From positions 1 through 64,000 of the forward strand of contig CAVSHT010000006.1 in the NCBI GenBank assembly GCA_963727895.1: a stretch of DNA of 64,000 bases. The letters are read 5' to 3'. The position numbers were made by a program. Source of the DNA: an uncultured Methanosarcinaceae archaeon (GTDB lineage: Archaea; Halobacteriota; Methanosarcinia; Methanosarcinales; Methanosarcinaceae). Positions 24,001 to 33,000 of this stretch are shown piece by piece. The first letter of the stretch is position 1, and the number at the start of each line of letters is the position of its first letter.

Positions 24001-27000
24001 AAAAGATCTGTGAACATGCAATTCTCCCAGGTAACTGCAGAGTTTCAAGGAAAAAGGAACATTTCCAGGGTTTACTGAGTGAGATTCTTACAGAGACTGT
24101 TATATTCCATTCCTTGGAAATAAGTATTCTGTTCCTTACAGGTATGCAGGAAGAACTGCAGAGCTTCATATTTTTGAAGGAAAATTAGAGATCTATGTTG
24201 ATTATGAAAAGATCTGTGAACATGCAATTCTCCCAGGTAACTGCAGAGTTTCAAGGAAAAAGGAACATTTCCAGGGTTTACTGAGTGAGATTCTTAAAGA
24301 GAACTCAAAATGCAAGAAAAATTCACAGATTCCGTTGAAATTCTCAGGTCCTGAAGTTGAAAAAAGGTCTCTTGATGTCTATGAAATATTTAGCCAGGGA
24401 GGTTTTGAATGAACAACTTCACCTATGAGAGGCTTCACAACAATCTGCAATACCTGAAACTGAATACTGTTGAAGAGCTCCTTGACAACTTTCTTGAAAT
24501 TGCTGTAAGGGACAACAAGACAACAATGGAAGTTCTTGATTATCTATTTGAACAGGAAAAGAAACACAGAGAAGCTGTTGCAATTGAGAGAAGGATGAAA
24601 AGTGCAGTTTTTCCTGTTAAAAAAACTCTTGAGGAATTCGATTTTGAATTTCAGAAATCCATTGATAAGAAGATAATCGAAGACCTTGCAACCTTGAGAT
24701 TTGTTCATAATTCAGAGAATGTTGTTTTCCTTGGTCCACCAGGTGTTGGAAAATCTCATCTTGCAATTGCCCTTGGAATTGAAGCAGTAAAAGCAGGGAT
24801 TTCGGTTTATTTTACTAATACAGAAAACCTTATTGAAAGGTTGAAAAAAGCAAATCAAGAAGGAATGCTTGAAAAGAAACTAAGGGACTTGATGAAGTAT
24901 AAAGTGCTGATTATTGATGAAATAGGATATCTTCCATTTGACGAAGAAGGAGCTCACTTTTTATTTCACCTAATCTCAAGACGTTATGAAAAGAGTTCAA
25001 CGATCTTGACATCGAATAAGTCGTATGGAGAATGGGGAGAGATATTCAAGGACCATGTAATAGCGGCTGCTGTACTTGATAGGCTTCTCCATCATTCTAC
25101 GACGATTGATATCAAAGGGGAAAGTTACAGGCTGAAAGAAAGGAAGAAACAGGGTATAAAAACAGGAAATCTATACCAGTAATTTTTAACAAGTTCATGA
25201 AAAATTGAGTAAACTTTATATCACAAGGTGGGGAAAAGTAAACCGGCATTGACAACATGCAAAAGCAATTATTGCCTTAGCAAGGAAAATTGCAACGATA
25301 ATATGGCATCTTATTACGAATGATGAGATATACGAAGATGAAACTGGCTATAAAAAAGGAAAAATTCAAAAGAGGAAGATTGTCGAGACTGAGATATTCT
25401 CGATTGATGAAAGGATAACAATAATTAGTGAAATATTTGCAATAACGAGAAAAGAGGATGAAGAGAGCACATGAGGAAGAGATCCTTATATACTTTCATG
25501 CTAAATCGTCCTATTGAGCGAAAGCCTAATCCTTCAAGATAGAGTTGTAAAGCCTGTCTTTTTACAAAAGCGGAAAAAGCAGTTGATTTTAGCTCTACTG
25601 TATAGTTATAGCTACAATCAGAGCATTTGTACCATTGACGCCCACCAACTATACCATTCTTTTTGTGACTGGAACTATTGCATCTTGGGCAGTTCATGCA
25701 GAATTATATTTTCTAATAAAAGATACTATCTTTAAGTATCAAAGCCAAAATTATAATAATATAAAAAATAGAAAAAAGCAGAGGACAAATTTCCTCTACA
25801 AATTTATTTAATATCTTTTTTCTGTTTATGTCAGCTTGGTAACCGGGTGGTTTGCCAGGTCCACGATCTCGATACCGAGATCTTTCGCGGTTTCACCAAG
25901 CATGATGTCGACCATTGCTACAGCAGGGAAGACTTCGTTGACATTCTCGATCGGTCCATAAAGGAGGTAATCAGAGCCTGCAATCTGTGCTACCAGGTTG
26001 GTACCAATGTCTGAAGGCATGTAGACAGCTTTCGGATCAGGCATAGTTTTCTTGAATTTCCTTAACCAGCTCCAGGAAGATGCCATGTTGTGGTATCCTC
26101 CACCGACTGGCAGCCCGAATTTTGCTTTCATTGTGGGTATCGAGCGGATAGTAGGACCGGAACCTGCGCCAAGAGGCATTGCAGCGACGTCGATTAAGGG
26201 ATACTTGATTCCACAGTCCTTTGCGATCTCAAGCATTCCTTTTGTTAGTCCGGAACCACCGACTTCAAGAACGTCCATCTTTCCTTTTACGGTGGGGTCG
26301 ACTGCGTTAAAGGCGAGCACAATAGATGCTGTCCACATCGCTTTCAGTAAGGACATCGATTTCTGCCTGTTCAATACTTGCGTTGATTGAGTTGTGTACA
26401 GCCCTGTCTGCAACTCCGATCTCGGTACAGTATTTGGCAGCAGCAGCCCTTACATTTCCTGCAGAGGAGTCGATCAGGAAAGGAGTGTGGTCATCGATAT
26501 CAACAAACCACTTTATGTAGTTACAAATCGCTTCGGGGGTTTCACCTACGATCTGGTTCGCATAGGGGAGACCAGTGGCATCGCTCATTGTTTGCTGGGT
26601 ATTCCAGAGCGATTCCGCAGTTGCTCTGTCAAAAATTCCCTTGTCTTCGTCTGAAACGATCTTGTGTTTTCCATAGAACATGGTGCTTACTAATACAGTT
26701 GGATATTCGCCTGGCTGACCACCGAATTTGACTCCACCTATCTCAAAGACTTCCTGTTTCTTATCAAATTTGAACATTTTTATCCCTCGCTTGTTAATGC
26801 ATGAACATTGATGATATCACAGTATAGACCAGGAAGAGCAGCACGCCAATCACGCCGCCGTACAGAATTCCGATGTCTCTTCCTACCTTCTTTCCGATTC
26901 TCTGAGCAATTTCACTGCCAACAAACTCTACTTTTTCTTCAATGTTGTCGAGCCGCTTCATGGCCGTGTTAAACTCGCTTTGATCTACAATAACTACGGG

Positions 27001-30000: not shown

Positions 30001-33000
30001 TCTGGGATCGAAGACTAATATGATCCAGCTACCTAGGAATACTACCATTCCAAAAGAGATTCCTGTCATCGGTCCACCAAACTTCGAGCAGAACCAGAGG
30101 TTGTCAATACCGTTTCTGAGGCCTGATTCACCTTTACGGACAATGCTTCCTGATTGTGAAGCATTCAGTCCTTCACCAAAAGGCTGCTGCTGGAACTGAC
30201 GCTCTGCACCTAAGTGGACGTCACCTGTGGCAGATCCGACTGAGCCTACTACAACTCCCCACAGGAAAGATAATAAGACGAATGGAAAAGGATGCGCTAA
30301 TGCGTATACCATTAGGTACGAGACTATCTCAACAGAGAACGTTGTTAAAAATGCAAAGGCCATGATCACGGGTGTGTGAGATCTTATCACATCTAGATAT
30401 ATAGGTTGCTTAAACCTAGCCTGACTTGCTTCTCTGCCCATAATTGCTGTCACGGAATAACTTCCATGCACCATAGCTGCAATAAGGGCTCCAATAACTA
30501 GTGCAAAAAGCGGTGAAAAACCAAAATGTTTGATTAAGACAAGAGCTCCAGTAGCACCGATTGTACACATCATTCCATTGGAGACCGGTTCACCAGCGAT
30601 AGCTTTATTATAAATACGATGTACGTAGCCCATTTGGGGAGCTAATTGCACTTGCGAATTGGCGTTACTCTGCGACCCTACATCGGATTCTAGGTCTTCA
30701 GAGGCGCCTGCAATCGTCGCAGCAGCGCCGATAAGCGCGAGTACTCCCATGCTTATGAGTGGATCCATTCATTTTCCTCCTTTATGTTATTACATGTAAT
30801 AAGGCCGGATTGAAAAAAACATTGTACCTTTTTTACTCTCGTTTGCCATATCATCACAACGAAAAATAATGAATGACAAGCGTTTAATTTTTGTTTAGAT
30901 AGGATTGTTCATAAACCTTTCGAAATAGTTATGCTTTTAAAATATTATTATATATTTATTTAATATATAACCAAATTTATAAGACGGATTGCGCCTGTTA
31001 ATGTAGTAAAATTCTATATTTATATATCTAAAAAAATATTTCACTCCTTCCAATATCATATAAAGATTCCGATTATAACTACTGAATTTTTCTATTTATT
31101 TTTAAAATATATTTATCATTTTTATATTAATAAGTTCTCTTCATCTAGTTTTCATAATTTTAATTTTTATAAATTGTCTATTTTATTAACCCCCTCAATC
31201 TTCATAAAATAAAAGAAGATCTCTTTTCTATATCCAACTTTTAATAATATTTAACAAGCTTTCGTTCCTTTAAATAAAATATATTTCTCCTACTTATATA
31301 TATAATTATTAATAATTATATATATAAATTTTAAAACTGTTTGCTGGTTATCTCTTACTAATATATAAATGTGTTGGCTTATTTTTATCATCTAAGCCAT
31401 GTGAAAATGTTTGGCGAGATTTACTTACAACTCTTTTTATATTTTTATATCCACTTCTTATGATCTTGACTATTTTTTATGTGTTCGCCATGTTAATTTC
31501 TGCATAAGTCCGAAAATGATTTTTATATCTAATTTCTTTGAATATCCTGTGATTTTAGGAGCCTCATCCTTTGCCAGCCCCCCTGAAGATTTACATGGGT
31601 ATGTTGAGTCTATAGAATTGTATATTCCCAAACTAGGGATTTATGACGGTTTAAGACTTGAAGATAAGAAACTTGATCGGATTCTTGATGAAATCTCGAT
31701 CTATGATTTCGCAGTCACAGTTCACGCGCCTTATTTTGCAGAAAGTGCTAACTATCCTTCAGCTCTTCAAGTTGATACCTCTCAAATGGGTACGAGAGAG
31801 TTTACCCTTATGGAAGAATCAATTGCACTTGCAAGCCGTATTGAAGCTTCTGTTGTTGTATTACATCCTGGAAGAATTGGACCTGATCGGGAGAAATCTT
31901 TTTCTTCTATGGTCAAAAACCTTGAAAAGCTTGCTTCCACAGCTGAAGATTACGGAGTTATTTTGGGTCTTGAAAACAAAGAAGGTACAGATACTTCCAA
32001 CTTTTGTTGTGAAGCCACAGAGTTTTCTCAAACAATTGAAGCTGTGGACTCCGAACATTTAAAAGCTACTTTTGATATAGGACATGCAAACCTTACCTGT
32101 GGAGGCGATCCTAAAAAACTCGGAGAATTTGTCCGAACTCTCAAAAAGCATGTTATACATGTTCATTTGCACGATAACAGTGGGCAGTGGACCGAAAAAT
32201 ATGATGGTGATGAGCATATGGCTCCAGGAATGGGTTGTGTGGATTTTTCAGTCTTGAATCAACTTTCCGGATACGAAGGTATATACAATATGGAGGTTTT
32301 TTCCCTTAATGATGTTCTTTTCGGGAAAAACACCCTTGAAAATACTTTAAAACATTAATATTTGCTTAAACTTGAAAAAGAGGAGCTGGATTCTGGTAAG
32401 AACCTCAGCTTTCATTTACTAAAATTAATAAAAGTCTAAACTTATGTTTTTCTGGCCAAGTACTTTTTTTAACTCTTCATAAGCTGTGAAAAGCTCTCTT
32501 TTTCTTCTTCCTATTGTTTCAACTGTAGGCTCGGCCTTGAGCCAGATATCCTTTTCTCCGCTTCCTCTTGTTATAGCTACACAGGAAAGCATATCTCCAT
32601 GGGTCAATCGATATACAGAATCAATTCCTGTAGGAGTTATCCAGGCAGGATAACTAATTTTAAGCCGTTCTGTTATGTCATGCCAGTTGAAATTTCCAGA
32701 AGCCCGGAGATTTAGCTGCAGGTGAGCGCGTTCTCCGGTAATCTTTTCATCAACATTTTTGAGGAAAGCGCTGTATGACTTATCTGCGTCACTAACTTCT
32801 TTTGCTTCGTAGAGAGCAAGTTCTTCGGCTTCTTCTTCGAAAAAGGGTGCAAGGTTGATTTTGCTCGAAGGTTTTGTCATCAGAGATACTCCGAAGAAAA
32901 CAATTGCACTCATGGCCATTCCAACAATAACTCCGTGACCTGTGAGAATAGGATTAATGGTTTCAAGATAATTAGTGGACAAAGGAGGTGTTTTTATAAG

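Follow-up and report, generated by a model that had tools for sequence, protein, structure and literature searches.

Organization of the mtr locus

Nearly all methanogenesis pathways share a single membrane-bound step that conserves energy, catalyzed by the Na+-translocating methyl-H4SPT:coenzyme M methyltransferase (Mtr), for which Methanosarcina is the genetic model. The window, i.e., 64,000 nucleotides from a 108 kb contig of an uncultured Methanosarcinaceae archaeon (genome G000; 84% complete), contains an mtrEDCBAFGH operon on the minus strand (25826-30768) that is the sole Mtr operon of the genome (Table 1). All eight Mtr subunits are encoded in the order E-D-C-B-A-F-G-H, and every one of them exceeds its Pfam cut-off. 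The whole genome yields a single Pfam match to MtrE and a single one to MtrD. The mtrC and mtrH genes are each broken by one frameshift.

Table 1. Features of the mtr locus and its surroundings in the window.
Feature	Position	Strand	Description
RtcB (downstream flank)	16065-17567	+	Conserved; follows species tree
370-aa protein (downstream flank)	17686-18798	-	No Pfam family; conserved; follows species tree
IS-fragment nest (IS1, IS110, IS21 istA/istB)	18799..25825	.	~6-7 kb; Pfam; between mtrH and the conserved downstream gene
mtrH	25826..26777	-	Two frames; Pfam PF02007 matches both halves
mtrG	26794..27027	-	77 aa; Pfam PF04210
mtrF	27024..27254	-	76 aa; Pfam PF09472
mtrA, corrinoid subunit	27259..27981	-	240 aa; Pfam PF04208, 6e-83
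mtrB	27983..28306	-	107 aa; Pfam PF05440, 5e-36
mtrC	28303..29092	-	Two frames; Pfam PF04211 matches both pieces
mtrD, variant type	29093..29857	-	254 aa; Pfam PF04207, 3e-87
mtrE, variant type	29854..30768	-	304 aa; Pfam PF04206, 6e-126; 69% identity to canonical
AT-rich region 5' of mtrE	30769..31410	.	Contains 5' crossover zone of the operon swap
Xylose-isomerase-like TIM barrel protein (upstream flank)	31411-32358	+	Conserved; follows species tree
Sodium:solute symporter (upstream flank)	32425-34344	-	Conserved; follows species tree

The first ~400 bp of the AT-rich region upstream of mtrE are ~80% alike across all operon types. The nest of IS fragments downstream of mtrH is missing in the other genomes of the group to which this one belongs (group A: G000, G026, G032, G017, and G031), as indicated by the spacing in G032, G017, and G026.

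Divergence and distribution of the variant operon

The group A subunits share a mean identity with canonical Methanosarcina of 69% (MtrE), 63% (MtrD), 59% (MtrC), 63% (MtrB), 75% (MtrA), 72% (MtrF), 75% (MtrG), and 84% (MtrH). The corresponding values between canonical operons are 90, 87, 83, 81, 87, 89, 90, and 92%, and across the genus, housekeeping proteins from the rpo cluster share 81-100% identity.

A scan of the genus with MtrE gave a match in 54 of 59 genomes; the five without a match are 80-84% complete. The variant MtrE is present at full length in G000 and 12 other genomes (88-96% identity) and as a contig-end fragment in G047 (92%, 89 aa), i.e., in 14 of the 59 genomes when the fragment is counted. 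The other 40 matching genomes carry canonical proteins that are 64-71% identical to the variant. No MtrE identity between 72% and 87% was found among the 59 genomes, nor did the scan detect both operon types in any one of them. All variant carriers are multi-contig assemblies (20-590 contigs). The first-pass annotation had counted 11 other carriers using MtrD; the number is raised here, using MtrE, to 12 others plus the fragment. When MtrD was compared with 5.8 billion proteins, the best 120 matches listed comprised 10 clusters at 84-94% and others at 68% or less, with none between 68% and 84%. In the phylum sample, no genome outside the family exceeded 57% identity to the variant.

If an MtrE is counted as canonical when it is at least 82% identical to other canonical copies and placed inside the canonical clades, the variant falls outside this class: it is 67-72% identical and makes up its own clade, on a stem of 0.33-0.69 changes per site (all trees here were built by quick or fast searches and carry SH-aLRT values but no bootstraps). 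Its carriers comprise the whole of a species clade (clade B) and 4-5 species (group A, G000 included) within an otherwise canonical clade.

Age and evolutionary rate

Fourfold-site transversion divergence (4DTv), a measure that takes synonymous rates to be equal on the unobserved stem, amounts to 0.306 (95% 0.281-0.334) and 0.346 (0.318-0.375) between variant and canonical operons. These values exceed the canonical crown split (0.220) and the distance from canonical operons to the sister genus g6 (0.266), in agreement with the first proposal that the type is old; the distance to other genera is 0.441. In codon bootstraps, the excess over the crown was at or below zero in a share of 0.000 of the resamples, and that over g6 in a share of 0.005. 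One clock fits the species markers and canonical Mtr alike, and it also runs normally within the variant clade, where the B1-B2 distance is 0.155 for the operon and 0.161 for the species markers. GC3 is similar between the two types. On the other hand, dN per 4DTv in mtrE, mtrD, mtrC, and mtrB is ~1.4-1.7 times that of canonical comparisons, while it is not raised in mtrA, mtrF, mtrG, and mtrH. Part of the long protein stem reflects this raised replacement rate in MtrE, MtrD, MtrC, and MtrB, and not age alone.

The protein trees (LG+C20 PMSF, quick searches, SH-aLRT only; later LG+F+G4 fast searches) place the variant differently according to the subunits and rows used. The E/D/C/B tree joins it with G048 and G041 (support 97), and the A/F/G/H tree pairs it with a 19-row canonical clade as its sister group (support 97). 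Thus, of the original statement that the variant stands as a clade beside all canonical Methanosarcina, the separate clade persists, but the variant groups with G048/G041 inside the genus when these are included. An AU test rejects canonical monophyly (p = 0.0066), the tested group having been named after the tree was seen. Without G048/G041, the AU test does not discriminate between a crown-sister position and one outside Methanosarcina+g6+G063 (p = 0.40-0.61). The nesting of the variant within the genus in protein trees fits an origin within the crown followed by fast evolution, and it counts against our best explanation, as does the absence of a sampled donor lineage, given the gap between 68% and 84% in the search of 5.8 billion proteins.

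Pure in-place acceleration, suggested by the first protein trees, was dropped as the main reading because synonymous divergence is raised too. It would mean that there was no ancient or foreign origin, and that the resident operon of the clade B ancestor evolved in a fast burst before being passed to group A. We regard such a history as unlikely, although it would account for the nesting within Methanosarcina even with eight distant outgroups expected to attract a long branch, for the unchanged slot and operon-exact limits, for the higher dN/dS in E, D, C, and B (0.15-0.17 vs 0.11-0.12), and for the alteration of 27 family-invariant residues, many of them close to the active site. Against it, synonymous divergence amounts to 1.4-1.6 times that of the crown and also surpasses that of the sister genus, the synonymous clock is normal inside the variant clade, dN/dS is far under 1, and the AU test cannot separate the two placements once the mosaic G048/G041 rows are removed.

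An origin outside the family, raised by the residues shared with distant methanogens, was rejected, given that the variant stays in the Methanosarcina/g6/G063 group with eight outgroups; the lack of any genome beyond the family above 57% identity in the phylum sample also opposes it.

According to the reading that we favor, that of an old second lineage, the variant would have split from the canonical operon at about or before the Methanosarcina-sister genus split, and later than the separation from other Methanosarcinaceae genera.

Probable replacement in place and transfer between species

The flanking genes, i.e., RtcB and the 370-aa gene on one side and the TIM-barrel protein and symporter on the other, occur together at 6 of the 13 variant loci retrieved and also at all seven of the first canonical loci retrieved. 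The variant operon occupies the syntenic slot of the canonical operon, and thus no unassembled canonical copy is expected. This upholds the earlier assertion that the genome carries only the variant type.

In the species tree, group A falls in a 12-row clade (support 100) with eight canonical species, and clade B forms a separate clade (support 100); G026 is absent from this tree, with both marker clusters missing, and G000 enters without the ribosomal-protein cluster. A single clade of all carriers was rejected with a 39-row matrix of rpo and ribosomal-protein genes (delta lnL 822, p-AU 5.8e-7), confirming that the variant is distributed against the species tree.

In the Mtr trees, group A is nested within B1 (support 99-100), and the A-B1 4DTv is 0.098 for the operon vs 0.179 for the species. 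The identity of group A to B1 reaches 78-92% solely between the mtrH stop and the mtrE start; outside these limits, the canonical relatives are closer. The same limits as in group A were found when clade B was compared with its canonical sister species, and the 3' crossover zone is no more than ~300 bp away from the mtrH stop. The locus therefore presents the pattern of homologous replacement: its flanks agree with the species tree and the insert with a different one, and the change is abrupt on either side. The operon appears to have moved from clade B to group A as a whole-operon cassette; this direction and the operon-exact breakpoints are new with respect to the first-pass annotation.

We propose that the variant lineage reached the ancestor of crown clade B, coming either from a relative outside the sample or through long persistence as a polymorphism, and that it replaced the resident operon there in place. 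Later, a copy would have passed from a B1-like species to the ancestor of group A by homologous recombination. The crossovers would have occurred immediately outside mtrH and mtrE, and therefore all eight co-adapted subunits would have moved as one cassette.

Frameshifts and transcription

The mtrC frameshift is a 1-bp insertion (A) near 28948, and the gene is unbroken (262 aa) in G032 and G026. The mtrH frameshift is a 1-bp insertion (C) near 26331, and this gene is unbroken (316 aa) in G032, whose whole operon is intact. Public contigs cover both sites with RNA and the mtrH site also with DNA. The extra base at 28948 is missing from all RNA contigs of X1, X2, and X3 that cover it, and all covering contigs of X1, X2, X3, and X10 have one base fewer at 26331/26333. 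Because every covering contig lacks the extra base, both insertions are assembly errors, as had been thought probable. In addition, metatranscriptome contigs from two studies cover all 30 operon bins, some with 0-2 differences, although RNA libraries may include DNA.

It is very improbable that the frameshifts are real, the operon being a recent pseudogene here and the organism living without Mtr. Two 1-bp insertions within 5 kb, none inside a homopolymer run, would fit this idea, as would the absence of frameshifts from ~15 kb of flanking genes and from the 13-kb rpo cluster. The contigs over both sites contradict it, with the limit that contigs drop rare variants and the runs need not correspond to the source sample; moreover, the remaining sequence is under purifying selection, as in relatives. 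An artefact, i.e., a mis-binned or chimeric operon or a paralogue with its canonical partner unassembled, can practically be dismissed despite the multi-contig state of every carrier and the incompleteness of G000 (84%, ribosomal-protein cluster missing), since the operon lies within long contigs (108 kb here, 814 kb in G043) flanked by genes that follow the species tree, identical junctions recur across independent assemblies, each of six carriers at 92-99% completeness has exactly one MtrE match, and the sequence is recovered in independent Illumina contigs from both RNA and DNA.

Conservation of functional residues

The metallocluster pocket of Mtr, which holds an [Fe8S9C] cluster, has recently been described. 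Among 44 functional residues named in PMC12774963 and bioRxiv 10.64898/2026.07.03.736320, 40 are as in canonical Methanosarcina; the four that differ are MtrE 62, MtrD 50, MtrC 266, and MtrA 210, the last one in part of the variants. The MtrE Na+ site is kept (S28 and E60 in 14/14, D183 in 13/13 variant rows covering each), and so is the CoM-binding MtrE R112 (13/13 rows covering the position). All 12 variant sequences retain MtrA His85, the corrinoid ligand, and the pterin-site residues D103, N129, D196, and N230 of MtrH. The locus is thus predicted to encode a complete, working enzyme, in which MtrH would put the methyl group on the MtrA corrinoid and MtrCDE would transfer it to CoM in a step coupled to Na+ at MtrE.

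Five of the seven residues of the pocket loops (MtrE G59, P61, P62; MtrD G47, Q50; MtrC G71, P73) are kept. MtrD retains T46 and G47, and Q50 is replaced by M in 13/13 variant sequences; MtrE P62V occurs in 14/14. Outside the variant, each of these two positions is invariant in 48-49 of the 49 Methanosarcinaceae sequences sampled (14 genera). The pocket base of the variant carries residues of non-Methanosarcinaceae methanogens (MtrE V62, MtrD M50). Since the solved Mtr of Methanothermobacter marburgensis has these same two residues, the replacements are compatible with an Mtr complex. Thirteen family-invariant residues of MtrE are changed, with clusters at N35, G59-P62, and the S179/D183 helix.

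These substitutions suggest a functional difference between variant and canonical enzymes. A more speculative idea, which we consider possible but doubtful on the basis of sequence comparison, is that at least two Mtr cassettes that differ in function and do not mix are maintained at one locus in Methanosarcina through interspecies recombination and selection, the variant having a rebuilt cluster-pocket floor and Na+-ligand helix in the state seen in methanogens outside Methanosarcinaceae (MtrE V62, MtrD M50, A180, G47). If true, the variant could have altered cluster binding, Na+ coupling, oxygen sensitivity, or preferred direction, and it would be a natural experiment on the tuning of the Mtr cluster pocket.

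Comparison with known systems

The variant shares gene order, subunits, lengths, and slot with canonical Methanosarcina Mtr, known by cryo-EM (PMC12774963; bioRxiv 10.64898/2026.07.03.736320), and also the MtrI/MtrA contact residues R118, MtrC Y66, and MtrD K224, the Na+ site, R112, His85, and the pterin site. It differs in its 59-75% identity in E, D, C, B, A, F, and G (84% in H) and in P62V and Q50M at the pocket base. The Mtr of Methanothermobacter marburgensis (PDB 8q3v; organism as named in the available part of PMC12774963) has, like the variant, Met and Val at the positions that align with MtrD 50 and MtrE 62, and Gly at MtrE 47, but its match E-values are far weaker than those of Methanosarcina-type chains. 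The shared residues appear to be reversals or convergences and not signs of ancestry, because the variant stays in the Methanosarcina/g6/G063 group when distant outgroups are included.

A third operon form, that of G048 and G041, also has a divergent segment in the same slot and is the nearest relative of the variant in the E/D/C/B tree. However, its divergence is confined to ~2 kb from mid-mtrC to mtrE, a segment that shares 72-81% identity with the species-sister G002 and 70-78% with the variant; the remaining operon is canonical, and therefore the crossovers lie inside the operon. The G048 mtrE contains an in-frame TGA. Recombination likewise shapes mtr evolution in Methanococcales and Methanomicrobiales, where mtrA duplication and gene conversion were reported (PMC4632066, available text), but that case concerns paralogous mtrA copies in one operon, whereas here a whole operon would have been allelically replaced between species.

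Implications

We consider it probable that the locus encodes a complete, working, and transcribed Mtr of a second allelic lineage, older than the radiation of the genus, which replaced the canonical operon in place and was passed from clade B to group A as a cassette. A full-text literature search (listings and abstracts) found no prior description of the variant operon. Its abundance in contigs of two metatranscriptome sets, at least one of them from sediment, makes it relevant to methane production beyond the laboratory. A second allele class that predates the genus radiation and passes from species to species as a cassette matching the whole operon exactly would mean that even the core Mtr complex is subject to gene flow, with its eight subunits behaving as a co-adapted unit. 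For structural biologists, MtrE P62V and MtrD Q50M, both toward the states of other methanogen families, would be ready natural variants.

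Identity of the variant operon to other Mtr

All eight products of the divergent (variant) Mtr operon matched their Pfam families with scores far over the cut-off, with mtrC and mtrH each requiring a two-frame reading. Only one MtrE and one MtrD match were found in the entire source genome, G000 (3.67 Mb, 19 contigs, 84% complete). When its MtrE was searched against 59 Methanosarcina genomes, 54 gave a match. The variant class comprises G000 and 12 other genomes, matched over the full length at 88-96% identity, as well as G047, assigned through a contig-end fragment (92% over 89 aa), and the remaining 40 genomes showed 64-71% identity to the query. 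Among these 59 genomes there were neither intermediate identities nor any genome carrying both classes; five genomes, each 80-84% complete, gave no MtrE match.

The mean identities of group A (G000, G026, G032, G017, and G031) to canonical Methanosarcina are 69% (MtrE), 63% (MtrD), 59% (MtrC), 63% (MtrB), 75% (MtrA), 72% (MtrF), 75% (MtrG), and 84% (MtrH), compared with 90, 87, 83, 81, 87, 89, 90, and 92% within the canonical type, and 75, 74, 63, 61, 68, 68, 67, and 72% between the canonical type and other genera of the family. Thus, for MtrE, MtrD, and MtrC, other genera are nearer to canonical Methanosarcina than the variant is. In a search of 130 family genomes, variant MtrE reaches 52-71% identity beyond its own class, and in a search of 161 genomes of the phylum a maximum of 57% beyond the family. 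Among the best 120 MtrD matches listed from a 5.8-billion-protein collection, 10 clusters, all metagenome-derived, reach 84-94% and the others do not exceed 68%. Full-text literature searches listed no paper on an additional Mtr type for Methanosarcina; the closest published case is mtrA duplication with gene conversion in other orders (PMC4632066). The variant locus is real and intact, encodes a probably functional Mtr, and represents a second allele class that is old.

Frame breaks and assembly quality

Compared with G032 and G026, the G000 operon has an extra C near 26331 (mtrH) and an extra A near 28948 (mtrC), neither within a homopolymer run. Contigs from three metatranscriptome runs of two studies (X1, X2, and X3) lie over all 30 operon bins, and those from one DNA run (X10) over 24 of 30, with some pieces showing 0-2 differences from the G000 operon. 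The extra base at 26331/26333 is missing from every covering contig of X1, X2, X3, and X10, and that at 28948 from every covering contig of X1, X2, and X3. Assembly error is the best reading of both frame breaks, as the first-pass annotation had considered likely for these 1-bp insertions. The operon is present in the RNA libraries at high contig depth, although contigs are no proof of transcription and give no ranking of expression.

At the mtrF/mtrG junction, around half of the RNA contig depth differs by 1 base in length, and a compensating indel pair was seen in mtrH of another strain; both reflect strain variation or further small assembly errors. The ribosomal-protein cluster (L2 family) was not found in G000, an otherwise contiguous assembly. 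The window also has two pairs of ORFs that overlap on the same strand; each pair looks like one gene in two frames, which, if so, would suggest further indel errors.

Features of the window and of the flanks that it shares with other Mtr loci
Feature	Window position	Strand	Basis or remark
mtrE, D, C, B, A, F, G, H, usual order	25826-30768	minus	Pfam
Common flank past mtrH			RtcB and 370-aa gene
Common flank past mtrE			TIM-barrel protein and sodium:solute symporter
Insertion-sequence fragment nest	18799-25825		adjoins mtrH
IS1-like	19861-20591 and 22512-22859
IS110	21120-22189
IS21 istA/istB	23088-25182
90-aa ORF	25425-25697		no Pfam match; possibly another IS1 InsA-like fragment
Segment upstream of mtrE	30769-31170		probably promoter or leader
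mtrF/mtrG junction	27024-27033		length difference
mtrH indel pair	26024-26033		another strain
Overlapping ORF pair	13653-13967 with 13940-14254		same strand
Overlapping ORF pair	57400-58380 with 58316-58780		same strand

Distribution against the species tree

For the species tree, 35 genes from the rpo and ribosomal-protein clusters were combined (8779 columns, 58 rows); the tree came from a quick search with SH-aLRT support and has four genomes from other genera as its root. Nine variant carriers and G023 form clade B (support 100), in which every member with an MtrE found has the variant type; in G023 MtrE was not found. Four group A genomes (G000, G032, G017, and G031; G026 was not placed) fall within a separate 12-row clade (support 100), alongside 8 canonical species. 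In a 39-row subset, omitting 19 rows that have little data or come from well-sampled canonical clades, forcing all carriers into one clade costs 822 log-likelihood units (p-AU 5.8e-7), and group A as a single clade is not rejected (p-AU 0.19). In all operon trees group A lies inside B1, a subgroup of clade B (G046, G014, and G042), with the other subgroup, B2, basal (support 99-100), which indicates that group A received the operon from a B1-like species.

Two genomes, G007 (L106) and G010 (L051), belong to a 15-row species clade, yet both Mtr trees place the entire operon of each with the other canonical clade. Judging from these sequences, canonical operons also seem to move between species.

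Chromosomal slot and limits of the exchange

For the flank comparison we fetched 13 variant loci and, initially, 7 canonical loci. The flanks of the window are common to all seven canonical loci and to six variant loci (G026, G032, G017, G046, G042, and G014); three variant contigs were of insufficient length. G000 carries 6-7 kb of IS1, IS110, and IS21 fragments between mtrH and the conserved flank, a nest that G032, G017, and G026 lack, their distance from mtrH to the 370-aa gene being around 1 kb. In subgroup B2 (G043, G020, G021, and G049), the operon lies away from the usual slot, in a glycosyltransferase/DUF1616 region adjoining an IS240-type transposase fragment, and was probably relocated. 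In G043 (L040, 1-19912) glycosyltransferases, DUF1616 proteins, and a Rce1-like protease surround it.

Since the variant sits in the canonical slot, a canonical copy missed in the assembly is not expected. Together with the single MtrE and MtrD matches, and with one MtrE match in each of six carriers of 92-99% completeness, this upholds the earlier proposal that G000 has the variant type only.

A breakpoint scan (reference G032, 400-bp windows) showed that group A is nearer B1 (78-92%) than its canonical relatives (67-84%) over the interval that begins just past the stop of mtrH and ends at the start of mtrE, whereas on both flanks it is nearer the canonical relatives (86-94%) than B1 (76-89%). 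Clade B compared with its canonical sister species gave identical limits. The exchanged unit is precisely the operon, and the variant entered the resident locus as a cassette spanning all of it. The approximately 400 bp upstream of mtrE are around 80% identical across all operon types and are likely a crossover site; the spacer around this segment is AT-rich and poorly conserved elsewhere.

There is also a third divergent form, in G041 (L186, 10201-12200) and G048 (L111). From mid-mtrC to mtrE, G041 shares 72-81% identity with G002, its sister species, and 78-88% with G048, whereas it matches G002 at 88-98% across the flanks and the remainder of the operon, which places its crossovers inside the operon. 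The mtrE of G048 contains an in-frame TGA.

Age of the variant lineage

Transversions at fourfold sites (4DTv) are similar in species markers and canonical operons: 0.208 and 0.220 for the crown split, 0.276 and 0.266 for the sister genus g6, and 0.434 and 0.441 for other genera. Between group A and B1 the operon gives 0.098 (95% 0.085-0.111) versus 0.179 for the species, so the transfer postdates their split; between B1 and B2 the values are 0.155 and 0.161, indicating vertical descent within clade B and a normal clock there. The variant-canonical values are 0.306 (0.281-0.334) and 0.346 (0.318-0.375), higher than the crown split and g6 and lower than other genera. Their excess over the crown was at or below zero in a fraction of 0.000 of 1000 codon resamples, and that over g6 in 0.005. 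The variant is nearly equidistant (0.31-0.35) from both canonical clades, the basal species G027, and g6, and the GC3 ranges of the two types differ little (0.39-0.45 vs 0.41-0.57). These values bear out the description of the variant as old in the first-pass annotation, and support a lineage that would have split near the base of Methanosarcina and the sister genus, while its carriers are crown species.

Under site-heterogeneous models the variant always falls within the group formed by Methanosarcina, g6, and the genome G063 (support 100, stem 0.2-0.3), also after adding 8 distant outgroups. The E/D/C/B tree places G048 and G041 as its sister (support 97; stem 0.57-0.69 changes per site), and the A/F/G/H tree a canonical clade (support 97; stem 0.19). 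Monophyly of 27 canonical rows, a group named only after the tree was viewed, was rejected (p-AU 0.0066); a variant outside canonical, g6, and G063 was not (p = 0.11), and with the mosaic rows G048 and G041 removed three placements near the base were equally acceptable (p = 0.40-0.61). The protein trees thus give only a Methanosarcina-like position near the base.

Relative to synonymous change, variant E, D, C, and B have accumulated more replacements (dN 0.255-0.263 at 4DTv 0.34-0.35, versus 0.126 at 0.28 for canonical-g6; dN/dS 0.15-0.17 vs 0.11-0.12), a rise not seen in A, F, G, and H; within the variant clade dN/dS is still higher, most of all in MtrC (0.26-0.34). The long protein stem therefore combines age with a moderately faster rate, and selection on the operon was purifying throughout.

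Changes at functional residues

We compared 44 residues, named in the available portions of two structural papers (PMC12774963; bioRxiv 10.64898/2026.07.03.736320), with canonical Methanosarcina, and 40 are the same. The unchanged ones include, in MtrE, the Na+ site S28/E60/D183, D25, D29, N35, S179, the CoM-binding R112, and R118; in MtrD, T46, G47, and E131; in MtrC, Y66, G71, and P73; in MtrA, K15, E17, K83, H85, and R103; and 15 of 15 in MtrH. Every variant sequence has V for MtrE P62, a proline in 48 of the 49 other sequences from Methanosarcinaceae, and M for MtrD Q50, a glutamine in 49 of 49. According to those portions, these two positions form the floor of the pocket for the [Fe8S9C] cluster. 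All variant rows have M in place of MtrC L266, and 9 of the 12 have Y in place of MtrA F210. Thirteen family-invariant residues are altered in MtrE (P36A, P49V, S58A, P62V, L163F, A167S, I169L, I172V, A176S, S180A, Y186L, T250L, and A287T), five in MtrD, four in MtrC, three in MtrB, one in MtrA, and one in MtrH; MtrF and MtrG show no such change.

Many of the replacing residues correspond to states found in other methanogen families: of 8 families sampled, 6 have M at position 50 of MtrD and 2 have V or A at position 62 of MtrE, and the solved chains of M. marburgensis have M and V there, as in the variant. Given the tree position of the variant, such shared states are reversals or convergences. 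The altered residues suggest that the cluster pocket and the ion path may differ from the canonical ones, and the predicted remodelling of the membrane core would be modest but pointed. The variant operon is relevant to methanogen bioenergetics and to work on archaeal gene flow.
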